A DNA stretch of 44,881 bases from Escherichia phage SM_A2. The position numbers and the translations under genes were made by a program. The notes under the pieces were generated by a model, which searched no databases, was not told the DNA's origin, and was given only the letters and a program-made list of their open reading frames with translations. Shown here piece after piece: positions 7,084-39,650 of this stretch. Each line of letters opens with the position of its first letter. Positions within the stretch are counted from its first letter, which is position 1. Location of the stretch: sequence record PP920552.1; one strand, given 5' to 3'.

Positions 7084-8184
7084 ATGTCTTTAACAGTGTT
7101 CCAGCGTAAACTCGTCACCGCGGTTACGCAAATGATCCCCGACAACCTGAACGTGTTCAACGCTGCCGCTAACGGTGCTGTTGTTCTCGGTACGGGTGAA
7201 GTGCTGAAGGATGTTGTAGAAAAAATGTCCGTAGGCTTGATCGCCAACCTCGTTACCGACCGTAACGCCTACGCCCCTGTAGGTACTCCGGCGACCGCAA
7301 AAGTGCTGGCGCGTATGCTGACCAACTCAGTTAACCTTTCCGCGAAAGTGGGTCCGGTAGCAATCACTAAGGCTATGATGGCTAAGATCGAAACCAACGT
7401 TAACAGCGTTGCGGCTGAGATCGCGGCCCAGGCTACTCAAGCGATTATGCTGCACTACCTGAAAGCGGGTATCGGTGCGGGCAAAGCGGCTATCGAAAGC
7501 AACGCAGCGGCAAACTACACCCAACCGGCGCGCGTTGACGGCGTTGGCGGTCGTACCTTCCCGACCCTGGCAGACTTCCCGCTGGCAGCTTCCAAGTTCG
7601 GCGATCAGGCGTCTTTGATTAAATCCTGGTTTATGGACGGCGTTACCTGGGCAAACTTCATCGCATACCAGGCGCTCCCATCTGCCGAGCAGGTATTCGC
7701 GATCGGCGATCTGCAGGTAATGGGCGACGGCCTGGGTCGCCGTTTCATTATCTCCGATGCCGCGGCTGACGCGATGGGCGCGGGTAAAATGCTGGGTCTG
7801 GTCCCTGGCGCGGTTGCAGTTACCACCAACGGCCTTGATATGCTGGCGCAGGAAAAAGGCGGTAATGAGAACATCGAGCGCTGGTGGCAGGGCGAGTTCG
7901 ACTTCAACGTGGCTGTTAAAGGCTACCGTCTGAAGGCGTCCGCTCGTACCCCGATCGAAGGCGTCCGCTCGTTCAAGCTGTCAGATATCACCACTAAGGA
8001 TAACTGGGAGCTTGACCATGGCCAGGTAGACAACGCACCGGCAACCGTGCAGGACGTTGGCGCGGTGGGTGACGGCGATACTAAAGGCCGTCGTAAGACC
8101 CAGGCCGCGCAGGAAGTGCCGACCCGTAACATCAAGGAAACGGCTGGCGTACTGGTTACGCTGACTGCGACCACTGCGTCCTAA
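7084..8184 (+). CDS. major capsid protein
   Basis: 366 aa ORF after the scaffold gene and before a strong terminator; size and position typical of a major capsid protein. Confidence 0.8.
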   Translation: MSLTVFQRKLVTAVTQMIPDNLNVFNAAANGAVVLGTGEVLKDVVEKMSVGLIANLVTDRNAYAPVGTPATAKVLARMLTNSVNLSAKVGPVAITKAMMAKIETNVNSVAAEIAAQATQAIMLHYLKAGIGAGKAAIESNAAANYTQPARVDGVGGRTFPTLADFPLAASKFGDQASLIKSWFMDGVTWANFIAYQALPSAEQVFAIGDLQVMGDGLGRRFIISDAAADAMGAGKMLGLVPGAVAVTTNGLDMLAQEKGGNENIERWWQGEFDFNVAVKGYRLKASARTPIEGVRSFKLSDITTKDNWELDHGQVDNAPATVQDVGAVGDGDTKGRRKTQAAQEVPTRNIKETAGVLVTLTATTAS

Positions 8185-8242: not shown

Positions 8243-8743
8243 ATGTATGGCGACCCGCAAACCTTTGTCGATTATGCCGCTGCGCGAGGTGTTGAAGTCA
8301 CGCTGAGCGATGCAACGCGACACCTTACCGTCGTTAATGACTTCCTTAATGGGATCAACTGGATCGGCGAACCCGCAGACCAGACCGGCATCGACGCATG
8401 GCCCCGCGTCAACTACCCGTCAGACGGTAAGCCGGTGCAAAACACGCTTACTGAAGATTTGGCAGTAGTCCCCGCGGGGCAGATCGTAGACTTCGCCTCA
8501 ACCCCCGTTGCCGTTGAACAAGCCGTTTACCGGCTGGCGATGCTGGTGGCTGACGATGTTGATATTTCTCCGATCGGCGATGGAAAGGAGACTATCCGCG
8601 AAACGGTAGGCCCGATCACGATGGAGTATGACGCTGCGTCGATTGGTAGCGGGGTGTCTTTCCCGTGGTGGGATGGATTGCTGGGCTACTGGGTGAACAC
8701 TGACGGCAACGCCGCCGGTAACTTTGACGTATACAGGGGTTAA
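8243..8743 (+). CDS. hypothetical head/connector-associated protein
   Basis: ATG at 8243 with AGGAG RBS; 166 aa; position between capsid and neck genes. Confidence 0.4.
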   Translation: MYGDPQTFVDYAAARGVEVTLSDATRHLTVVNDFLNGINWIGEPADQTGIDAWPRVNYPSDGKPVQNTLTEDLAVVPAGQIVDFASTPVAVEQAVYRLAMLVADDVDISPIGDGKETIRETVGPITMEYDAASIGSGVSFPWWDGLLGYWVNTDGNAAGNFDVYRG

Positions 8744-8744
8744 C

Positions 8745-9188
<444 letters not shown>

Positions 9189-9215
9189 CATGGCGGGATT
9201 TAACTACGCAGGCTT

Positions 9216-9285
<70 letters not shown>

Positions 9286-9300
9286 CGAAGGGGGAGTAAC

Positions 9301-9654
9301 ATGGCGGGATTTAACTACGCAGGCTTGAAGCGGAAAGTAAATCCGCTGATTAAAAAATACGGCATGACCGTTAAGGTGACGCGTCCGGGGTCTGTTGACC
9401 GCGTAGACGGCGAAGAAGTGGTTATCCCGCCAACGTCGTTTGATGTCATCGGTCTTCGCGAGGAGTACAAGCCCAGCGAGATCGACGGGACTCGTATCAT
9501 TGCCGGTGACGTTAAGTTCTTATGCCAGGCATCGGAGCAAGTGCAGGTAGGCGATCTGGTTAACCTGAATAGCACGGACTACCGTGTTATCAATCCAAAT
9601 CCACTGCAACCGGCGGGAACTACCATGCTGTTTCAATTACAGCTAAGGGGCTAA
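9301..9654 (+). CDS. head-tail joining protein (putative); alternative in-frame start at 9190
   Basis: ATG 9301 preceded by AAGGGGGAG; an identical RBS+ATG lies 111 nt upstream (9190) in the same frame, which would add MAGFNYAGL-(SQ)11-SRRGSN. Confidence 0.4.
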   Translation: MAGFNYAGLKRKVNPLIKKYGMTVKVTRPGSVDRVDGEEVVIPPTSFDVIGLREEYKPSEIDGTRIIAGDVKFLCQASEQVQVGDLVNLNSTDYRVINPNPLQPAGTTMLFQLQLRG

Positions 9655-22699: not shown

Positions 22700-22727
22700 G
22701 TATTACACCGCTCAACCACGAATGCAA
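22700..22727 (-). promoter_or_regulatory. sigma70-like promoter with ATTGGTTGCA motif (leftward, lipoprotein gene)
   Basis: Read on the minus strand: ATTGGTTGCAT supplies TTGCAT (-35), 16-nt spacer, TAATAC (-10, fwd 22700-22705), about 30 nt upstream of the lipoprotein ATG. Confidence 0.5.
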
Positions 22728-22747
22728 CCAATTTATGAGGATTTAGC

Positions 22748-24341
22748 TATGGCAGCGGGTACTCTATCCGTAACGAATAACAGCAAGGCGGTTGTAGGGG
22801 TCGGCACAACGTTTACCGCGTACAAGGCTGGTGACTTCTTAACGCTGGTGGTAGGACAAGTCCCCTACACCGTAGCGATCGCGTCCATTGAAAGCGCAAC
22901 CGCGCTCACGCTGGTGTTACCGTTCGACGGCCCAACGGCAACCGGCCTTGCGTGGGACGGCGTTAAACGCGATACCATGTCACTGGCAACGATGGGCGTT
23001 ACCGTCCAGGCACAGAAAGCATTGCGTTTGATGATTGCAGATGAAAACAACTGGCGCGCAATCTTCGGCGACGACGAGCAGATCACGGTAACGCTGCCGA
23101 ATGGGCAAGTCATGCAGGGTATGTCATGGGGATATCTGTCACAGTTAATGAAGCAGATCGACCCGGAGGAAATTCTCAACCTGCAACAGCAAGCCGCCGC
23201 GTCTGAAGCCGCCGCGAAAGGATTCCGTAACGAGGCCGAAGGCTTCAAGAATGACACTAACACGATTAAGACGCAGACTAACCAGATTAAGACGGATACC
23301 GGTGCTATTCGCGACCAGGCCAACACCGCGAAGACTGCCGCGCAAGATGCCCGAGATGCCGCGCAAGATGCCCGAGATGCCGCGCTGGGATACCGGGATG
23401 AAGCTGAACAATTCAAGAATGAGATCGCCACGTCGCAATTTCCAAAGCTGGGCAGCAAGAATAGATTCACACAGCCGCAGGAGTTTTTCGCACCATACCC
23501 AGGCCTCAACCTGACGTCTACTGCCGTGGGTGAGGATTATCTTGGTCGAACTATCCTGATTGAGAACATCACAGGCAATAGGCTTAACTTCTTCTACACG
23601 AAGCAAGGCGACAACACCGGGCGCTACACTATCAGTCTTCCGAAGCCAGAAAATACGCAGGTTATGACGATCGGCCTTGATGGTGGTTTATCGCTTAACG
23701 GCGACTCATATAACGCCGGGGAAGGTAGCGGAGTAGACTTCAGTGTCGGGCAGCAAGGGTGGCGTCAGGTAGCAGGACCGTGGTCAAACGGCCCGATAAG
23801 CGGCAATATGTACGGAGCATTGTTCTCGCAATGCGTGCAGGGGCTAAACGTTGGCCCCTACGGTGCCAACGGAACGCAGGGCAGATGGTTTATGCAGCGC
23901 TTTTACGACACATCAGCGAATATCTTCACGCGCGTGCAAACTAACGCGACACCGTGGCAAAACTGGTATAAAGTCACCACGTCCGCGGTATCGGATGAAC
24001 GCCTGAAGGATATCAAGGGCAATCTCAATGTGGAGGGTGCACTGGATAACATCAACCGCATGGAGTTTAAACTCTTCTCATTTAAAAATGAGAAGTCAGA
24101 AAGCAAACAGCCTATTACGCGTCGCGGTGTTATCAGCCAGCAGATCCGTCTTATTGACAAAGAGTACACAACCGAAGTAGGCGGATTCTACCACTTGGAT
24201 CAGACCCCGATGCTGTTAGATGGCCTGGCGGCGATCAAAGCATTGCGTGCGCGTGACGAAGCGAATAAGGCTGAAATCGCGGAATTGAAAGCTGCCGTTG
24301 AGGATTTGAAAGCCGCGGTCGCGGCACTGACAAAAGCATAA
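22748..24341 (+). CDS. tail fibre protein with C-terminal intramolecular chaperone domain
   Basis: ATG 22748 with GAGGA RBS (ORF track opens at 22722); coiled-coil segment with a 21-bp tandem repeat (AQDARDA x2); C-terminal SDERLKDIKG-type motif typical of self-cleaving chaperone domains. Confidence 0.8.
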
Positions 24342-30250: not shown

Positions 30251-30499
30251 GCAGTCGGATATGCTGTCGATAACGCGAACGTCAGCACCGCGGCGGGCCA
30301 TTCGCTCATGTTCACGTACCTGGTGCGGCTTAGGTTTTCCTCCGGGGCGCTTCACTTCGACGAACACTATTTTGCCGTTGATGATAATAATCAGGTCGGG
30401 CGCACCCGCGCGCCCCTCCCATGCAAGTTTTCGGCAGAATCCGCCGACCTCTTTCACCCGTTTCATCAGGTGACTTTGAATCTTGCCTTCTGGTGTCAT
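30221..30499 (-). CDS. VRR-NUC domain nuclease
   Basis: 92 aa; PD...(D/E)xK-type core APDLIIIINGKIVFVEVKRPG characteristic of VRR-NUC. Confidence 0.75.
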   Translation of the reverse strand: MTPEGKIQSHLMKRVKEVGGFCRKLAWEGRAGAPDLIIIINGKIVFVEVKRPGGKPKPHQVREHERMARRGADVRVIDSISDCDLLVAELVA

Positions 30500-32790
30500 T
30501 ACTTCCTGTACCTGTACATAATGTCGCCTTCGGCGGCAAGTGGGAAGCCTTTAGCCCAAATAGGCAGGTCGCACATCAGCGCGCAAAGCTCCTCGGTAGT
30601 GTAGTCGTCGGTGTCCGGCACTTCTGTGATCAATTCGTCGTGTACTGACAGGACGATTTCATACCCCGCAGCTTCAACGCCAGGCATGGACCATGCGAGA
30701 ATATCGCGACACAACGCCTGTACGATGTTCTCCGTCAGTTTGCCGCCGTAGGTATACTGGAATCCCCACTGGCGCGTCGTCTGATTCTCGCCCTGATATT
30801 TAATGCGTGTGCTGGTGCGCTTCTTGCCGGTGTCTTCGTCAATCTCGGTCGTGACCGACAGCGCGATGCCTGGGTAGCTCATGATGCGCCCGGACGGCAA
30901 CTCGATTTTCAACCACCACCCCGCGGCGTTCGGGTCGTCGCGCTCCTCGTCGAAGGTTGGGTCGTGCTTCGCCTTCGTGCGGACTATCTTGAGCGCTTTC
31001 TTACCATCCGGGCGAACGTTCGCGCCAGCCCAGTACGCTTTGCCAGGATTGCGGATTGCACACAACACCGCGTCCTCAAGCTCGGCCCAAAAGGCTACCG
31101 TCTTCGGGTGAGCCTCGCGCCACATGCGTTTAATCGCATCACACGTAAGCCATACGTTTTTCGGCAGTATGTAAGTCGGGCGCTCGTCCTTCTTGCCAGG
31201 CTTCGGCGGTCGCTTCGCTTCGTTAATGCGGGCGTACTCATAACCCCGTTTAGCCGCTGCCCAAATGTGATCGGGGAATGTGCCTTTCATGACGTCCGCC
31301 ATCGCGTAAAGGTCGAGGCCCAGGTTTTTAGCAAACTGCAGGAACGCGGCAACGCCGCCACCATAACCCAGTCCCAATTCGCACGCCTTACCAATCTGGC
31401 GTAAGTCTTTTCGGTTGGCTTTGATGTATTCCGGGTCGAGGCCAAACATCTTACCGGCAGTTTCACAATAGATATCGCGACCCGCCCTAAACACCATTAG
31501 CGCGGTTTTCTCACCAGCGATCCAGGCAAGCCCGCGACCTTCCACGTTAGAATAGTCAGCTACAACAAACTTCTTGCCCTTAGCCGGGATAATGCACCCG
31601 CGAACGGTCGAGGCCGTTAACTTCGATATGTCATACGCCCAGTGCGCTGTCCCGCGTAACAGGGAGTTGATGCCGTTGGTGAGCATGTGCGACCGGACCC
31701 AAAAAGAAACGTCGCTCTCGCCTTCACGGCGCTTAATCTTCCCTTCGTGGTCGTCGCTATACTCGCCGCGTGCCAGGTTTTGCGGCTGGAAGCCCTTACC
31801 GGCCCAGCGTAGCGTGCGTTTCGCCCCGCCATACTGGAGACACCCACGACGGCGACCATCTGCGGATAAGCCATTAACGAGCGGATTGTACTTAGTCGAT
31901 GCCGTTGATGACGCACCGAGGCGCATCTCGATAAGCACTTTGCCCTCGTCGGGGAAGTCCGGGTCTTCCAGCAGGTCGTTAAGCGTGGATTTCTGCGCGT
32001 TGTGGATTGTGAACGCAGGCGCGAGGTCGCGCAGCGCTGGCAGGAAGTCATTGCCTGTCAGCTTACCGCCGAAGCGCTCCCATGCTTCTTCCTTCAATTC
32101 TTCCTTATGCGCCTGCACCGCTTTGATCGCGGCGTTCGCCAGGTCAACGTCCACATAGAAGCCGCGGTCGTTGATCAACTGGTCAATAAGCAGGATTTCA
32201 TCTTCCTTCGGCGTGTTACCCCAGTCCGGTATGCGCCAATAGACTTCCCTCATCGCTATAATATCCAGTGCGGCATAGCGCAGGAATTTAGCCCACTCCT
32301 CGGGGTGCGTCTCGCGCGTGTAGCGGCGGATTTTGTAGGTCTTGGGGGTTGGCTTACAGAATCGTTTGATCAGCGCCTTGCCCGCCTTATCCTTCGCGTG
32401 CTCTGCGTCGACGCCCAACACCTGGCACTGCATATCGAGGCTACCCGGCAGCGCGTGGCGAAAGGCCATAATCATGGTATCCTCGATCTGGCCTACCGGC
32501 AGGTCAATGCCCCACTTCTCGCGAATAACCAGGCGGTCAAACAGGAGGCCGTTAGCCATCACTATTTTTGCTTTCTTGCGGGATACCTGGCGGAGCGCCT
32601 TGCGCAGTTCACGCGGCATTGTTGGGGACTCGGTGCAATCCCATGTCTGCACGCGGCCCTCGTCTATGGCGTACGTGCAAATCATAATCTCGGTTGTTGG
32701 GTGTTCTGCGTAGGCGTATGCGCCCACTTTCTTCAGGTCCACCCCGCTAAATGTCTCGGTATCGAGAAAAAGGCGTTCGAAGTCTTTCAT
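30499..32790 (-). CDS. DNA polymerase I-like (family A) with 3'-5' exonuclease domain
   Basis: 763 aa; N-terminal exo motif LFLDTETFSG (DxE); C-terminal polymerase motif C-like SVHDELITEV; basic finger-like segments. Confidence 0.9.
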   Translation of the reverse strand: MKDFERLFLDTETFSGVDLKKVGAYAYAEHPTTEIMICTYAIDEGRVQTWDCTESPTMPRELRKALRQVSRKKAKIVMANGLLFDRLVIREKWGIDLPVGQIEDTMIMAFRHALPGSLDMQCQVLGVDAEHAKDKAGKALIKRFCKPTPKTYKIRRYTRETHPEEWAKFLRYAALDIIAMREVYWRIPDWGNTPKEDEILLIDQLINDRGFYVDVDLANAAIKAVQAHKEELKEEAWERFGGKLTGNDFLPALRDLAPAFTIHNAQKSTLNDLLEDPDFPDEGKVLIEMRLGASSTASTKYNPLVNGLSADGRRRGCLQYGGAKRTLRWAGKGFQPQNLARGEYSDDHEGKIKRREGESDVSFWVRSHMLTNGINSLLRGTAHWAYDISKLTASTVRGCIIPAKGKKFVVADYSNVEGRGLAWIAGEKTALMVFRAGRDIYCETAGKMFGLDPEYIKANRKDLRQIGKACELGLGYGGGVAAFLQFAKNLGLDLYAMADVMKGTFPDHIWAAAKRGYEYARINEAKRPPKPGKKDERPTYILPKNVWLTCDAIKRMWREAHPKTVAFWAELEDAVLCAIRNPGKAYWAGANVRPDGKKALKIVRTKAKHDPTFDEERDDPNAAGWWLKIELPSGRIMSYPGIALSVTTEIDEDTGKKRTSTRIKYQGENQTTRQWGFQYTYGGKLTENIVQALCRDILAWSMPGVEAAGYEIVLSVHDELITEVPDTDDYTTEELCALMCDLPIWAKGFPLAAEGDIMYRYRK

Positions 32791-33015: not shown

Positions 33016-33816
33016 TTAACGGCGGCGACGTTTGCGTGGCGCTTCGTCTTCGTCGTCGTCCTCATCATCTTCGTCATCGCGTGGCTTACGACGTTTGCGA
33101 GGTGTTTCATCTTCGTCGTCGTCATCGCGGCGCTTGGACTTTTTGGACTTGCGCGGCTTGTCGTCTTCGTCATCGTCATCACGACGTTTTGACTTTTTGG
33201 ACTTACGCGGGCTTTCGTCTTCGTCGTCGTTATCCAGGTCTTCGTCGGAACATGAAGACCCGCCACCGCCGAAGGCTTCGCCGTCTTCACGGAATCGCAG
33301 ACCCAGCAAGCCCGCCCCGAGTCCCTTGCCGTTGGTATTGTTCCATGCCCAAATATCAAGGGACACGTTGCAATAACAACCGGGGTAGATCTCCTGGCCT
33401 TCGATCTCGTCGCCTTCTACGGTCAGACCTTGTTCAGTCTGCTTCTCGCCGAGTGACGTTTGGATGATAGGCTGTTTGAACGATTTGGCGTTGATATACA
33501 ACATGCCTTCGAATTCTTCGGTTACTTCGTCGCGCTCGTCACCGTCGCGGACTGCGCATTCCTTAGAATCCTGGGCGTAGTGGCGGTCCATCCACTTATC
33601 GGCATTCTTCTCGGATTTCAGCTTGTCGGTGAGCACTGCGCGCGCTGCCGCTTCCACTTTGTCCACCTGCGGATCTTCTTTATCAAGAAGAATCACGGCG
33701 CGGTATGCCGGTTTTTGTCCATCCTGTTTAGGGGTATCACGTTCCCAAATTTTCAGGAAACATACGCGCACATTTTTCAGGTTGACTTTAGCCATTTTCC
33801 AATTCCTCATTTTCAC
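33016..33816 (-). CDS. ssDNA-binding-like protein (DUF2815-type, putative) with charged repeat tail
   Basis: 266 aa; location next to the DUF2800-like nuclease and polymerase matches the conserved phage replication module; C-terminal about 70 aa alternate poly-acidic and poly-basic blocks from tandem DNA repeats (about 33040-33235). Confidence 0.5.
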   Translation of the reverse strand: MKMRNWKMAKVNLKNVRVCFLKIWERDTPKQDGQKPAYRAVILLDKEDPQVDKVEAAARAVLTDKLKSEKNADKWMDRHYAQDSKECAVRDGDERDEVTEEFEGMLYINAKSFKQPIIQTSLGEKQTEQGLTVEGDEIEGQEIYPGCYCNVSLDIWAWNNTNGKGLGAGLLGLRFREDGEAFGGGGSSCSDEDLDNDDEDESPRKSKKSKRRDDDDEDDKPRKSKKSKRRDDDDEDETPRKRRKPRDDEDDEDDDEDEAPRKRRRR

Positions 33817-33885: not shown

Positions 33886-34128
33886 TCAAGCATTTTCATT
33901 AAAAAGATTTCTGGTCACGTAGTTGGTAGCGTTCTCGATCCAGCTTAGCGGCGGGCGTTCGATGTTCTTTTCCACCCAATCGACGGCAACTTCGCTATAT
34001 CCGTCATCCAGCCAGCGGGTCGGATGGCGAATCATCCACGCCACCATTAACACGCCTTGCACGCAATGCAGGATAAAGCCCAGCGCGCCGAGCAAAAACA
34101 TCAATAAGATTGCGAATACTTTATTCAT
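33886..34128 (-). CDS. small membrane protein (hypothetical)
   Basis: 80 aa; two hydrophobic helices (VFAILLMFLLGALGFIL, GVLMVAWMI). Confidence 0.45.
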   Translation of the reverse strand: MNKVFAILLMFLLGALGFILHCVQGVLMVAWMIRHPTRWLDDGYSEVAVDWVEKNIERPPLSWIENATNYVTRNLFNENA

Positions 34129-35551
34129 TGCTTAAGTCCTCGTCAGTAGCTTCCGACCACGCAGGGCGCGGGTCGTCGATTGGAGCTAACACCGGTTTGG
34201 CAGGTGCGCGCGTGATTTTATCACACAGCTTCGCCCACACTTTCGGTTTTTCGTCCTTCAGTACCTTCTCGGCATCCGTAGGGCTGAGCAATGTTTCTTT
34301 GTACATCACATCGCGCTTGATCCGGGCCTTCGTGAAGATTTCAATCACTTCGCTCTCGTCCGCCCACTTACGGATCCCTTCCTTACCGGCAACCATCTTG
34401 AGGCCCAGCGATTCGCCATCGCCCGCCATGACCGCCTTGAATACCGCGGACTCGATAGCCTTGATGTGCTGGCGCATTGCGTCCAGGCCTTCATAAGCCT
34501 TGCGCAGTTCCGCAGCGCTCATAGCACCGGGGGCCGCTTCTTTCTTGCCACGCTTCGCACGTCGGGCCGCCTTCCGGGCTTCGCGGGCCATATTGCGGTC
34601 GTGATTGGCGCATTCTTCCTCGGTCGCCACGCTCACGTCGTCGCCCAGGTCTTCGTCGGTTGCCGTTGGAGGTGTCATCGTGTCGATTGCGGCCTTAGCG
34701 CGGGCACTACACTGATCCGCAAATCGGCACCACTGGCACGCATCAACGCTGGGACGGAAGTCGGCACGGGTAAGTCCCTTCTTGCCTCGGGAATACGCCT
34801 CCAGTGCGGCAATAGCGCGCTTGGATGCAAACTTCGCGAATATCTCCAGCGCTTCTACCGAAATATCCCACTCCGACGCCCCGCCGCAATACGGCTGGAA
34901 GATAACCAGGCGCACGGTCGTAATGTCGTACATAGTTTGCAGCTTGCGCAGCAGGCCGAGCGCGTACAACATAAGCTGTTTGTTTTCTTTCGCCTCGACC
35001 TTATGCCTCCCGGTCTTCAGGTCGCCAACAATCAGCATGTACGTCCCATCGGTCTTTTTCATGACCATGACCATATCGGCAGTACCGAACGTTTTAATCC
35101 TGTTGCCGTCGATCTCGTAGCCTGAGTGAAGGACGCGGGTCAGATCGGCGCGCATCTCAAGCTGGACAAACTCCGCCACTTCGAGGAGCGGTCGCCAGTG
35201 GTCGATGTACGCGTCGCACTGTTTCACCATGTCGTCGTTGACCAGTACGCCGCCTTTCGGTGCTTTAGGGTGTGCCTTCACTGGCCCCTTGCCTTCGTTC
35301 TCGACGTAGCACCCTTTATACGTCTTCGCGGTTATCAGCTTCTCACCGGCGATAATGCGGTTTAGCACCACCTCAGATACGGTGTGCATACTCGTACCGT
35401 TAATCGCGGCTTGCCCGGATTCGTTCGGGATATCTTTTTCCACCACCAGGGCAGCAGGGCAACCCATCCACTTTTTAGCACCGGATGGCCCAAGTAATGA
35501 GTGTTCTGTATTGCTACCGGATTGCGTTTTACGTTTTGGTTTAATCGCCAT
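34121..35551 (-). CDS. DUF2800-type PD-(D/E)XK nuclease (Cas4-like, Fe-S cluster)
   Basis: 476 aa; N-terminal LLGPSGAKKWMGCPA; nuclease core (IVGDLKTGRHKVEAKENKQLMLYALGL); C-terminal Cys cluster CQWCRFADQC consistent with a 4Fe-4S site. Confidence 0.7.
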   Translation of the reverse strand: MAIKPKRKTQSGSNTEHSLLGPSGAKKWMGCPAALVVEKDIPNESGQAAINGTSMHTVSEVVLNRIIAGEKLITAKTYKGCYVENEGKGPVKAHPKAPKGGVLVNDDMVKQCDAYIDHWRPLLEVAEFVQLEMRADLTRVLHSGYEIDGNRIKTFGTADMVMVMKKTDGTYMLIVGDLKTGRHKVEAKENKQLMLYALGLLRKLQTMYDITTVRLVIFQPYCGGASEWDISVEALEIFAKFASKRAIAALEAYSRGKKGLTRADFRPSVDACQWCRFADQCSARAKAAIDTMTPPTATDEDLGDDVSVATEEECANHDRNMAREARKAARRAKRGKKEAAPGAMSAAELRKAYEGLDAMRQHIKAIESAVFKAVMAGDGESLGLKMVAGKEGIRKWADESEVIEIFTKARIKRDVMYKETLLSPTDAEKVLKDEKPKVWAKLCDKITRAPAKPVLAPIDDPRPAWSEATDEDLSNE

Positions 35552-35991: not shown

Positions 35992-36021
35992 TCTAAAAAT
36001 AGGCCCGCAGATTAGCGGGCC
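35992..36021 (-). terminator. intrinsic terminator (minus strand)
   Basis: GGCCCGC-AGATTA-GCGGGCC hairpin followed on the minus strand by TATTTTTAG. Confidence 0.6.
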
Positions 36022-36029
36022 GGATAATA

Positions 36030-36641
36030 TTAATCTTCCAGTTCGAAATAAGTTTCGACGATTTCTTTAAGATCTTTGTGGAAGTCTTCGACGTCGTCAT
36101 CTTCCAGCTTGGCGATTGATTTGATCTCGAACGATTCCAGCAGGTCGTCGAATTCGTCGTTGGCATCGTCGTCGTCACCACCAGCGATAATAGCGGCGTA
36201 TTGTTTGATCTCATCGCGCATCTCCGCCAGCGGATCGGCATCTTTCTTGCCTTTGCCTTTCGCCGGGGCTTTTTTAGATTTAGCCGGTTTTTCGTCTTCG
36301 GCGTCATCGTCGTCATCTTCTTCTACGACTTCTTTTTTGGCCTTACCTTTCGCCGGGGCTTTTTTAGATTTAGCCGGTTTTTCGTCTTCGGCGTCATCGT
36401 CGTCATCTTCTTCTACGACTTCTTTTTTCGCCTTACCTTTCGCCGGGGCTTTTTTAGATTTAGCCGGTTTTTCGTCTTCGGCGTCATCGTCGTCATCTTC
36501 TTCTACGACTTCTTTTTTCGCCTTAGACGGCTTCTTGTCTTCCTGCTTACCAACGGCAGCGCCAACGGTTTCATAATGCTTAGCGATGGTTTCCAGTGCT
36601 ACTACGCCGCGAGTAATCAGGTTTACGATTTGTTCAAACAT
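36030..36641 (-). CDS. charged-repeat protein, first gene of leftward operon
   Basis: 203 aa; three tandem 38-aa repeats (KKEVVEEDDDDDAEDEKPAKSKKAPAKGKAKK) from 114-bp DNA repeats (about 36245-36530); strongly acidic C-terminus; GGAGAT RBS. Confidence 0.6.
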   Translation of the reverse strand: MFEQIVNLITRGVVALETIAKHYETVGAAVGKQEDKKPSKAKKEVVEEDDDDDAEDEKPAKSKKAPAKGKAKKEVVEEDDDDDAEDEKPAKSKKAPAKGKAKKEVVEEDDDDDAEDEKPAKSKKAPAKGKGKKDADPLAEMRDEIKQYAAIIAGGDDDDANDEFDDLLESFEIKSIAKLEDDDVEDFHKDLKEIVETYFELED

Positions 36642-36846
36642 GTTTTATATCTCCGATTGGTTAAGTTTAGGTGTCGGCAGTTAACTTCGTCGGTGGCCTT
36701 AACATATTGCCAGGTTGCGCGTTCTCCCGTTCGGGTAGTGGACCGGGTTATATATTCACGGTTGGGAATCCTGACACTTCGATCCGGCCCCTGCGTTGCC
36801 CCTCTCCAGTTTGCGTCCTGCATCCTGTCGACGGGGTGAATAATAG

Positions 36847-36879
36847 ATTGGTTGCAGGATGGGTGTCAACAACTAATTT
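36847..36879 (+). promoter_or_regulatory. sigma70-like promoter with ATTGGTTGCA motif (rightward)
   Basis: ATTGGTTGCAG (-35 = TTGCAG 36852-36857), 16-nt spacer, TAATTT (-10, 36874-36879). Confidence 0.4.
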
Positions 36880-36985
36880 CAAAAAAAAAGCGCCGAGGCA
36901 AAATGCGACGGCGCTAACCAATAAGAGACAATGAGACGGGAATTATTATTACACGCGTGCGCGCCCGTTTCAATATCCAAAGGAT

Positions 36986-37014: not shown

Positions 37015-37045
37015 CATTGGTCATTAACCAACTGGGGACATAACA

Positions 37046-37375
37046 ATGAATGTAAACGACGCAATCGAAATGTTAACGAAGACTGTTAGCAGTGAAACAA
37101 GCCGGTCATGGGCTTATACCGATGCCGTTGGGGCGGTGCTGTTTGAGGTCGAGCGCCTGCGCAGTGTAGAAAAAGAATTACGCGCCAGGCTGGAATTGCT
37201 CAACGGTACTGCAGCAAGCAAGCTGCAAAAGCACAATGAAGAAATGGAAGAATACAAAAAACAGGTTATCCGTTTGCGCGCCGAGGGCAAATCCTGGGCG
37301 ATGATTGCCGAGTTGACCGGAATTAATCGGAGCACAGTGCGCTCCTGGGTACGCAATAATAAAACTTCTAAGTAA
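37046..37375 (+). CDS. HTH DNA-binding regulator (putative)
   Basis: 109 aa; coiled-coil N-terminal half; C-terminal HTH resembling sigma-70 region 4/LuxR type (GKSWAMIAELTGINRSTVRSWVRNN); first gene of the rightward operon. Confidence 0.55.
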   Translation: MNVNDAIEMLTKTVSSETSRSWAYTDAVGAVLFEVERLRSVEKELRARLELLNGTAASKLQKHNEEMEEYKKQVIRLRAEGKSWAMIAELTGINRSTVRSWVRNNKTSK

Positions 37376-37385
37376 GGCCACGGCA

Positions 37386-39650
37386 ATGAGCTTAATTAAA
37401 TTCGCTGTAACAAGACCCGCTAAAAAAGGCGAAAAAGCCAGGGCGGAAAACTTCCAGATGACCACCGATGAATTTTTCGAATTTATCAATGATGCGAAAG
37501 AAATCTCCTCGGTGCATATCAACAAGACGGAAGATAAAGCCGAGTATGCGCGCCGCAAGCGTAAGGCCGACGGCATCGTGGCGTATACCAGTGACGGATT
37601 GCGTCGTAAGACCAGTGCGGTGGACCGCTCGATCCTGTTCTTCGATATTGACCGCACCGACACCCGCACCCTACGCCGCTGCCGTAAGGCGTTCATTGAC
37701 GCGGGTCTGGAGCACGTCTTCCACACCACAACCGGCGACCGTCACCCACTGAAAGGCGGCACGCGTTGCGCTCGATTCCTGGTGCTCACTGACAAGCCTG
37801 TACCGGCTGAAGACCTGGGCCGCGTCCAGTATGCACTATTACACCAACTGGGTCTGTCAGATGTGGACTTCGACGATTGCACGAAAGACACAAACCGCCT
37901 GATGTACCTGCCACACCAGCAGTCTGTTATTAAGTGCCACTATGGCAAGCGCGCCCGCGTCCGTCGTCTGCTCCTCCTGGCTGACAAGCTGGGAGTTGAG
38001 AAAGAGGAAGTCCGTCGCGAACTGACCCAGGGCGACGACGCAGTGGCAGACGGCATTCTGGACTGGTGCTTCCAGGCAGGATTCGAGGAGTTATCTTCAG
38101 GGCGGGGCTATGAAGTGCCGTGCCCGAACGAACATCTGCACAGCGGCGAAGGGTCGACGGCTATCATGGTTAAGGATGGCGAGATCCGTTTCAAGTGTAT
38201 GCACACCGGCAACGAGTGTTGCTCGGAGCTGAACAGACACCAGCACCTGGCGCTACGTCTTATCGGGATCCCGGACCACCTGAACGTCGAGCCACACAAT
38301 ATGTCCCGTAAGCAAATCGCCGCCATCCTTCCGGGGCTGGACGTCGAGGAAGTCGAATCCTTATATGAACATATTGTTGATGCGGTTGGCGACGGCGAAG
38401 AATACGGCGTGTGCACCGATGCGGATCTGGATAACGAGCCGGTTGCGCTGTTCAGTAAGCACGACCCGATTATCGAGGGGTTGATTAACTTTAAATCGAC
38501 CTGGTATATGGCGGGTGAGTCGAATATCGGTAAGTCTTTCTACGTGCTGGGCCAGATGGGCGCGGTTGCCGCCGGTATTCCGTTTGGCGGTGCGAAGGTC
38601 GTACAGTCTCATTGCTTCTATTTCGACGCGGAAGGTGGCGAAGCCTCCAACCAGCGTAAAGAAGCATTGCAGATTAAATACGAGCACGACCTGGACAAGC
38701 TGCACATTATAGACCTGCAGTCACGCGGCTGGGATATCACCAGCAAATCGGGCTTGCGCGAAGTTATCAGCTTTATCAACCGCACCGCTAACGGCGAACC
38801 GGTTGGCCTGGTGGCGTTCGACTCACTCAACCAGACTGTTGCGTTGCGGTCCGCCGAGGCTAAACCGTTCGACGAGAACAACGCCAGCGATATGGGCGAA
38901 GTGGTCAAAGCGCTGAAGGCCATCGCGGAAAATACAGGTGGCAGTGCGGGCGTCATCCACCACCCGGCTAAAGGTGCAAACGGCAGCAGAACGCCACGCG
39001 GGTCCGGCGCGCTGCATGGTGCTGTCGATTCTGCGTTCTTCCTGGAACAGCCGGACGACAACCAGCCCGGACAATTGAACCTGTATCATGAGAAGTCACG
39101 TAACGGCATCAAGCAAGCGCCGCGCGGCTTCGTCCTGCTTAAGTGCAAGGTGAAGGTGGATCTCCGCAAGTCAGAAGCGTTCGAGGCGCACCAGTCCACC
39201 AGCACCGGTCCAGACTTCGGCGACGTGGTTGCCGGATGGGACGTCAAGCCGATCGCCTCCACGCCACGCGACGAGACTCTCTACCTCGTACCGGTTGCCC
39301 TGGCACCTTTCGCTATTGAACAGGCGAAGGCAGCAGGCAAGGCCGCGGTTAAGGAAGAGAACACCGCCGGGCCGCGCAACGAAAAAGAGAAAGTGCTTTA
39401 TGCGGCACTGGAAAAACTGATGGAAGATAACCCGGACCATACTGGATTCAGTAAATCGGCAATTGTCCGCCAGGCGGGACTCGCGAAAGGCGGCACTTCG
39501 ACGAAGGCAATCGACGATATGGTGGAGCGCGGAGTGATAGGTTTCTATACCGATCCGCACACCGGGGCCATCTATGGGTCGTCTAATTTGGTCATAAAAA
39601 CGGATATACCAATCACGCTTTCGGCGACCGACGAAGACTTGAAAGATTAA
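37386..39650 (+). CDS. DNA primase / helicase (primase-polymerase N-domain + P-loop NTPase)
   Basis: 754 aa; N-terminal acidic motif ILFFDIDRTD; Cys/His cluster (CPNEHLH...CMHTGNECC); Walker A GESNIGKS and Walker B-like LVAFDS. Confidence 0.8.
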   Translation: MSLIKFAVTRPAKKGEKARAENFQMTTDEFFEFINDAKEISSVHINKTEDKAEYARRKRKADGIVAYTSDGLRRKTSAVDRSILFFDIDRTDTRTLRRCRKAFIDAGLEHVFHTTTGDRHPLKGGTRCARFLVLTDKPVPAEDLGRVQYALLHQLGLSDVDFDDCTKDTNRLMYLPHQQSVIKCHYGKRARVRRLLLLADKLGVEKEEVRRELTQGDDAVADGILDWCFQAGFEELSSGRGYEVPCPNEHLHSGEGSTAIMVKDGEIRFKCMHTGNECCSELNRHQHLALRLIGIPDHLNVEPHNMSRKQIAAILPGLDVEEVESLYEHIVDAVGDGEEYGVCTDADLDNEPVALFSKHDPIIEGLINFKSTWYMAGESNIGKSFYVLGQMGAVAAGIPFGGAKVVQSHCFYFDAEGGEASNQRKEALQIKYEHDLDKLHIIDLQSRGWDITSKSGLREVISFINRTANGEPVGLVAFDSLNQTVALRSAEAKPFDENNASDMGEVVKALKAIAENTGGSAGVIHHPAKGANGSRTPRGSGALHGAVDSAFFLEQPDDNQPGQLNLYHEKSRNGIKQAPRGFVLLKCKVKVDLRKSEAFEAHQSTSTGPDFGDVVAGWDVKPIASTPRDETLYLVPVALAPFAIEQAKAAGKAAVKEENTAGPRNEKEKVLYAALEKLMEDNPDHTGFSKSAIVRQAGLAKGGTSTKAIDDMVERGVIGFYTDPHTGAIYGSSNLVIKTDIPITLSATDEDLKD

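Follow-up and report, generated by a model that had tools for sequence, protein, structure and literature searches.

In phage lambda (gam-bet-exo) and in T7 (5.9-6), an inhibitor of RecBCD is encoded beside the phage exonuclease and annealing genes. The acidic tails of the T7 gp2.5 SSB and gp4 helicase dock on the T7 DNA polymerase, and the gp2.5 tail has the usual, purely acidic form. The duf2800-gp2.5-polA module, an established cassette of phages (PMC8093625), is among the most widespread phage replication/recombination cassettes, and its proteins are recurrent triggers of immune systems, including retron type IX, retron Eco8, Hachiman, and Borvo. Researchers have found that the Dhillonvirus nuclease is RecB/AdnA-like, that Bas14 escape mutants with a truncated nuclease were recovered, and that the Bas14 nuclease ortholog is the trigger of retron type IX (bioRxiv 10.64898/2026.07.14.737667). 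The protein studied here resembles lambda Gam and T7 gp5.9 in being small, non-enzymatic, and acidic, in being encoded upstream of an exonuclease and an annealing/SSB pair, and in being expressed early and probably oligomeric via a helix. It differs from them in its long disordered polyampholyte tether and in having distant relatives that are not strongly acidic.

The window is the whole stretch of DNA analyzed, 44,881 nt from Escherichia phage SM_A2 (PP920552.1). A 2-kb query around the gene matched 175 phage records, nearly all of them E. coli or Shigella phages of the genus Dhillonvirus, with StarDew as the best match (95.6% identity), and the gene order of complete Dhillonvirus genomes agrees with that of the window. 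Thus, the window is an almost complete genome, of about 45 kb, of a Dhillonvirus, an E. coli siphophage. An Rfam search of the whole window gave no matches. The ORF of 203 codons at 36030-36641 on the minus strand is a real gene; it begins with ATG and is the first leftward gene beside a divergent intergenic region of about 400 bp, as the first-pass annotation had it, and a strong promoter lies in front of it. The features of the gene and of the two downstream module genes are as follows.

36030..36641, minus strand: coding sequence of 203 aa (ORF list), stop codon at 36030-36032, a member of phrog_3127
36651..36654, minus strand: ribosome-binding site GGAG, read from the sequence, with a 9-nt spacer to the ATG at 36641
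36840..36869, minus strand: predicted sigma-70-type promoter TTGACA-18-TATTAT (promoter scan, 11/12 matches)
36002..36021, minus strand: intrinsic terminator-like hairpin GGCCCGC-TAATCT-GCGGGCC with a T-run (terminator scan, 7 G-C pairs)
36555..36641, minus strand: N-terminal hydrophobic/amphipathic helix, aa 1-29 (MFEQIVNLITRGVVALETIAKHYETVGAAV; AlphaFold2 helix 2-29)
36234..36554, minus strand: disordered, charge-balanced, blocky polyampholyte linker, aa 30-136 (AlphaFold2 coil, pLDDT < 50)
36249..36518, minus strand: three full 90-bp/30-aa tandem units KKEVVEEDDDDDAEDEKPAKSKKAPAKGKA (TRF and self-shift analysis)
36033..36233, minus strand: C-terminal acidic three-helix bundle, aa 137-203, with an acidic tail that holds hydrophobic residues (ETYFELED)
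34121..35551, minus strand: DUF2800/PD-(D/E)XK (Cas4/RecB-like) exonuclease, downstream of the gene (PF10926, E 2.7e-66; phrog_69, exonuclease)
33016..33816, minus strand: gp2.5/Enc34-type SSB/annealing protein (PF10991, E 3.2e-30; phrog_112)

The leader between the predicted promoter and the gene is about 190 nt long, and no unusual structure was found in it (z 0.68). The terminator-like hairpin occupies the 48-nt gap 3' of the gene; phage Siskin, too, has an annotated terminator behind its positional analog, and none was found after the gene in a divergent relative (L004), which has an equivalent terminator-promoter-leader arrangement. Longer forms of 207-247 aa, starting MQDANWRG..., are annotated in StarDew, EE09, Opt212, and others. 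These are ruled out, since in the window the MQDANWRG stretch belongs to a separate frame (ORF 36623-36823), so that the extension is an annotation artefact and the start is the ATG at 36641. In several deposited Dhillonvirus genomes, about 60 extra N-terminal residues of this kind are annotated, at L001 3031-3774, L003 34845-35543, and L015 35258-35884, likely through the same start-codon mis-call. [quoted passage not shown] By synteny and translation, CDS56, annotated with the false N-terminal extension, is the ortholog of the 36030-36641 gene, and CDS61 is the gp2.5-type SSB. The protein is therefore made and probably abundant.

The first-pass annotation had described three near-identical 38-aa repeats encoded by 114-bp DNA repeats, each alternating a poly-acidic with a Lys/Ala-rich basic block, followed by a strongly acidic C-terminus. 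Three near-identical tandem units are indeed present, but the unit is 90 bp, or 30 aa. TRF reported an array at 36241-36525 with a period of 90, 3.2 copies, and 97% matches; a self-shift of 90 gave an unbroken identical run of 96 nt, whereas a shift of 114 gave nothing above background. The full units cover aa 42-71, 72-101, and 102-131 (36518-36249), and units 1 and 2, like units 2 and 3, are one synonymous base apart, except at the end of unit 3. The alternation of a poly-acidic block (EVVEEDDDDDAEDE) with a Lys/Ala/Pro block (KPAKSKKAPAKGKAKK) was confirmed, as was the acidic C-terminus, with 27 acidic and 6 basic residues among the last 70. The whole protein has 38 K/R and 65 D/E, a net charge of -27, and a pI of 4.46. 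Its charge segregation is far above chance (kappa 0.457 vs 0.128 ± 0.038, maximum 0.246, in 300 same-residue shuffles). The linker of aa 30-136 has a fraction of charged residues of 0.59 and a net charge per residue of -0.06. As a sequence feature, the repeat is an ordinary linker expansion.

AlphaFold2 was run on two proteins, the window protein and its shortest natural homolog (115 aa), and the two models agree. The three-helix bundle at 137-199 is predicted with confidence (pLDDT 89-95), the N-terminal helix has a pLDDT of about 72 in the model of the whole window protein and of about 44 in that of the 115-aa homolog, and every repeat lies inside the predicted coil. The N-terminal helix is nearly invariant in close homologs, its motif LLERFVVAHELIAAN recurs in distant relatives, and it probably serves for oligomerisation or docking. 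No informative structural neighbours of the bundle were found; sequence and profile searches of the PDB returned only designed helical bundles and one low-complexity match, so that no relative of the protein with a solved structure was found there.

The window protein has 104 homolog clusters, and 102 close clusters were compared after mis-called upstream starts had been corrected. Across these 102 clusters, there is almost no variation in the first 30 and the last 70 residues, and the length of the centre varies from 26 to 114 aa. Acid/basic modules number none in 4 clusters, one in 39, two in 58, and three in a single one, that of the window, which is the only three-module allele and the longest version. 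The net charge of the centre has a median of 0 and ranges from -7 to +7, indicating that modules are gained and lost as charge-balanced units. In relatives, the two copies are 87-94% identical, against 97% for the three in the window, which marks the third unit as a recent gain; the suggestion of recent expansion or variable copy number made in the first-pass annotation is thus supported. The repeats had also been put forward as the functional element, and this is where the data point elsewhere: they are predicted to be disordered, four natural variants have no central acidic block at all (for example, P0097 with 115 aa and P0082 with 122 aa), and conservation lies at both ends. Thus, the repeats are a length-variable disordered spacer and not the functional core.

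A profile search placed the protein in phrog_3127, a family of hypothetical proteins from Dhillonvirus and Guernseyvirinae whose function is not assigned, with a full-length match (E 3.6e-53, 181.7 bits); in Pfam, no family scored above threshold. The C-terminal domain was turned into a profile, and an exhaustive HMMER scan with it gave 42 representative clusters, all of small proteins (31-267 aa, the shortest being fragments). The 35 of these 42 that were read have a helix, a charged linker, and a bundle where they are full length, and five clusters have two bundles (P0108, P0113, P0114, P0136, and P0141). A second, word-indexed search with the C-domain profile added only a dozen further proteins. 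The protein thus falls into a class defined in the present analysis, the helix-tether-bundle companion of the duf2800-gp2.5-polA module: AlphaFold2, the alignments, and the C-domain profile give it an N-terminal helix, a low-complexity linker, and the C-terminal motif F..LLE.[FY].[VI]....KL.D.DV..F. The three-module repeat is absent from every other retrieved member of the PHROG family.

The position of the gene is as constant as its architecture. A family member lies 0-4 small ORFs upstream of the DUF2800 PD-(D/E)XK nuclease, on the same strand, in 11 of 11 metagenomic loci, in the window, and in three named phages, and the metagenomic relatives checked reach down to the weakest matches (E of about 1e-4 for the C-domain). 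The two genes are separated by two small ORFs in the window. A gp2.5/Enc34-type SSB follows the nuclease wherever the sequence extends far enough, and usually DNA polymerase A comes next; the DNA polymerase gene of the window lies at 30499-32790. This placement extends to Jersey-, Chi-, BPP-1-, and APSE-type phages, in some of which the positional counterparts are too distant for BLAST (Chi-like Siskin gene 004, BPP-1 bbp35, and APSE-2 P53) and yet share architecture and motif; these three cross-match one web of unknown-function PHROGs. The distant positional analogs are contained in PHROGs 7721, 18562, 408, 3709, 6784, 33976, and 36047, which cross-match each other and, like phrog_3127, are listed with neither a function nor a Pfam model nor a solved structure. 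A tblastn search with one distant member reached 487 phage records, mainly of Salmonella and Escherichia phages and including Kagunavirus, and the DUF2800 nuclease matched 1221 phage records. Distant members are not strongly acidic, their tethers are T/K/G- or A/P/T-rich, and the acid/basic blocks are not conserved in them. The conserved property is therefore the bipartite tethered design and the position before the nuclease-SSB pair, not a DNA-like charge. This indicates that the module has a constant and abundant fourth partner, filed as scattered "hypothetical protein" PHROGs. Well over a hundred deposited genomes already contain the gene sequence itself, labelled "hypothetical protein", and we found no account in the searchable literature of the family as a constant, abundant companion of the recombination/replication module or of the three-module allele as the largest. 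Jersey-type homologs are labelled "13.88 kDa late protein", the name of a UniProt entry of phage MB78, which is presumably the source of the label.

The neighbouring module proteins show related charge patterns. The SSB at 33016-33816 (minus strand) ends in a blocky acid/basic tail, SPRKSKKSKRRDDDDEDD repeated 2.4 times and then ...APRKRRRR, which is encoded by a 54-bp tandem repeat at 33105-33234. With a kappa of 0.55 vs 0.10 ± 0.04 for shuffles, this tail is a polyampholyte as blocky as the linker of the 36030-36641 product, and the SSBs of related phages (L006, L011, and L014) have similar tails. Compared within single phages (the window and loci L004, L006, L016, and L017), nuclease, SSB, and helicase have a common C-terminal tail that is acidic, holds a hydrophobic residue, and co-varies from phage to phage: TDEDL for Dhillonvirus, D[DE]EV for Siskin, and DLV for BPP-1. 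The C-terminus of our protein is of a comparable class (YFELED in the window, EEDDV in Siskin), except that BPP-1 bbp35 lacks the resemblance, and the likeness of such short acidic tails could arise by composition. In a six-frame translation of the window, [ST]DEDL occurs at only four sites, 39627 (plus strand) and 34660, 34147, and 33249 (minus strand), all in replication proteins: the C-terminus of the primase-helicase (37386-39650), the DUF2800 nuclease (internally and at its C-terminus), and the linker of the SSB. Judged by these motifs, the shared tails suggest docking on a common hub. As in T7 gp2.5 and gp4, the acidic tail includes a hydrophobic residue close to the C-terminus; it is common to nuclease, SSB, and helicase and resembles the end of the small protein. 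In T7, however, it is a short motif on enzymes, whereas here a dedicated small protein, which has a folded bundle besides its N-terminal helix, carries it as well, and docking of that protein would be by analogy.

Our tentative reading of the protein, a possible one on which we would not yet insist, is that it is a tethered accessory or adaptor of the DUF2800 exonuclease/gp2.5-type SSB/DNA polymerase A recombination-replication module; we infer the partners and the adaptor role from the anatomy, the disorder, the variation in copy number, the abundance of the ortholog, and the gene neighbourhood. Abundant and non-enzymatic, it would be transcribed from a strong promoter of the host type and would consist of two conserved binding modules, the N-terminal hydrophobic helix and the acidic three-helix bundle with its acidic tail, and a flexible tether between them. 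The tandem repeats are that tether: each 30-aa unit adds one acidic and one basic block, so that the linker stays near neutral while its length varies, and this phage gained its third unit very recently. The helix may self-associate or dock on one partner, and the acidic bundle and tail may engage a basic DNA-binding surface of another, the likeliest candidates being the SSB with its basic-block tail, the nuclease, or a polymerase hub that would also receive their acidic tails. The effect would be to tether or regulate the machinery for end processing and annealing. The synteny among related replication modules could partly result from common descent rather than from functional coupling.

The same gene order can be read in another way, namely that the protein is a decoy of the Gam or T7 gp5.9 type, a super-acidic bundle oligomerised via the N-terminal helix that would mimic DNA and block RecBCD or another DNA-end nuclease, protecting the linear replication or recombination intermediates made by the adjacent exonuclease and annealase. 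The place of the gene ahead of an exonuclease and an annealing protein parallels gam-bet-exo and 5.9-6, the last 70 residues combine their acidic excess with a confidently predicted fold, high abundance fits a stoichiometric inhibitor, and the annotated Dhillonvirus records viewed held no other candidate RecBCD inhibitor. P2 OLD, a defence that the RecBCD inhibitors Gam and gp5.9 set off, gives robust protection against Dhillonvirus (bioRxiv 10.64898/2026.07.10.737580), which is consistent with such a decoy, although OLD is not strictly RecBCD-dependent. Nevertheless, we consider the decoy unlikely. Searches gave no sequence or profile match to the Gam family and no structural match to the Gam dimer, no sequence or structure similarity to T7 gp5.9, and nothing in sequence or fold that resembles Abc2 or a DNA mimic of solved structure. 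The distant members at the same genomic position are not markedly acidic, and the Lys-rich blocks would tend to neutralise a mimic. Eight Chi sites in the genome would be needless if RecBCD were fully silenced, with the reservation that their enrichment is modest under Markov models. Deciding between adaptor and decoy would complete the parts list of the module and help to show how cos-type siphophages such as Dhillonvirus, Jerseyvirus, and Chi cope with the RecBCD of their hosts. It would also account for the tolerance of a disordered linker of variable copy number in so highly expressed a protein.

Three further proposals give the charged centre itself a function. A blocky-polyampholyte scaffold would, together with the SSB tail and DNA, form a recombination/replication compartment by electrostatic co-condensation, with the number of modules tuning valency and the helix and bundle recruiting the DUF2800 nuclease and the replisome; we regard this as improbable. 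The first-pass annotation had proposed an anti-restriction DNA mimic or a nucleoid-targeting protein. An Ocr/ArdA-like mimic acting against Type I restriction-modification or BREX through its alternating acidic repeats would agree with the low pI, the net charge, and early expression as the first gene behind a strong early-type promoter. However, Ocr and ArdA mimic DNA with a rigid fold that sets out its charges on a structured surface, whereas the acidic repeats here are coil with pLDDT below 50 and dispensable; no similarity to such folds was found in Pfam or the PDB, and the family tracks the recombination module and not anti-defence islands. With neither sequence nor fold in its favour and distant members that are not highly acidic, this idea has to be given very little weight. 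A histone-H1-like or nucleoid-associated protein, whose K/A/P-rich blocks would attach to DNA non-specifically, either coating that of the phage or remodelling the nucleoid of the host, is suggested by KPAKSKKAPAKGKAKK, which we take to resemble the Lys/Ala/Pro repeats of H1-like bacterial proteins, and by the abundance of the protein. We think it quite improbable: H1-like, Hc1, and AlgP-type KAP proteins are net basic, whereas here the centre is charge-balanced and the whole protein strongly negative, which disfavours DNA binding; the number of basic blocks varies, and other linkers take their place in distant members; and a Pfam search gave no match to H1, Hc1, or HU families. The adaptor is the reading that we prefer.

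Two Dhillonvirus proteins known from defence studies were also compared and rejected as identities. Ksap1, the Dhillonvirus trigger of KpAvs2, has 74 aa and is encoded between methyltransferase and phosphatase genes, so that size and locus differ (PMC11564622). Anti-Tmn (ORF35 of phage SMS22) consists of N-terminal helices and a C-terminal three-stranded sheet, so that fold and locus differ, and it is an accessory gene, absent from phage SMA8 (PMC11846954). The SM_S22 homolog of the window gene is CDS0050.

The divergent intergenic region holds several further elements. A 16-20-nt box, TTAACCAAYNGGRGAYATAA, occurs at 36645-36664 and 37024-37043, directly before the start codon of each of the two divergent first genes and in inverted orientation, with a third copy in mid-spacer (36915-36930); it may be a shared operator or a translation-initiation element. 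A second promoter-like site, TTGAAA-17-AATAAT with an upstream TG (36973-36945, minus strand), is followed on the same strand by a hairpin with a T-run (36915-36889) and could give rise to an RNA of some 50-60 nt before the main promoter is reached; at the matching place in L004, the divergent relative, a terminator is likewise followed by a promoter. The divergent gene itself (37046-37375, plus strand, 109 aa) carries the GenBank labels "DNA recombination nuclease inhibitor gamma", "transposase", and "resolvase". We found no match to a Gam or transposase-catalytic family and only helix-turn-helix DNA-binding domains (HTH_23, HTH_28, and Sigma70_r4_2), so the gene probably encodes a regulator.

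Elsewhere in the window, Chi (GCTGGTGG) occurs at 7880, 8542, 16027, 22844, 42169, and 42897 on the plus strand and at 36185 and 39203 on the minus strand. These eight sites, six of them on the plus strand, compare with 1.36 ± 1.12 expected from dinucleotide shuffles and with 4-6 under third- to fifth-order Markov models, an enrichment of about 1.2-1.8-fold in the latter case; two other Dhillonviruses have 7-8 sites. One Chi site lies inside the 36030-36641 gene, at the conserved IAGGDDDD motif. Other repeats were also seen. At 9077-9328 (plus strand), a (GAGCCA)n array gives ORF 8724-9188 an (EP)n tail of about 21 dipeptides, and a tandem duplication of 111 bp with perfect copies (9105-9328) runs across the stop/start junction, so that the next gene begins MAGFNYAGL-(SQ)12-...-MAGFNYAGL. 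This duplication is either very recent or an assembly artefact, and the second gene may in truth start at the ATG at 9301. Short tandem repeats of 12 and 21 bp are found at 23326-23385 (plus strand) inside a 539-aa ORF (22722-24341), which is probably a tail-fibre gene by the matching positions in the EE09 and KarlBarth records.
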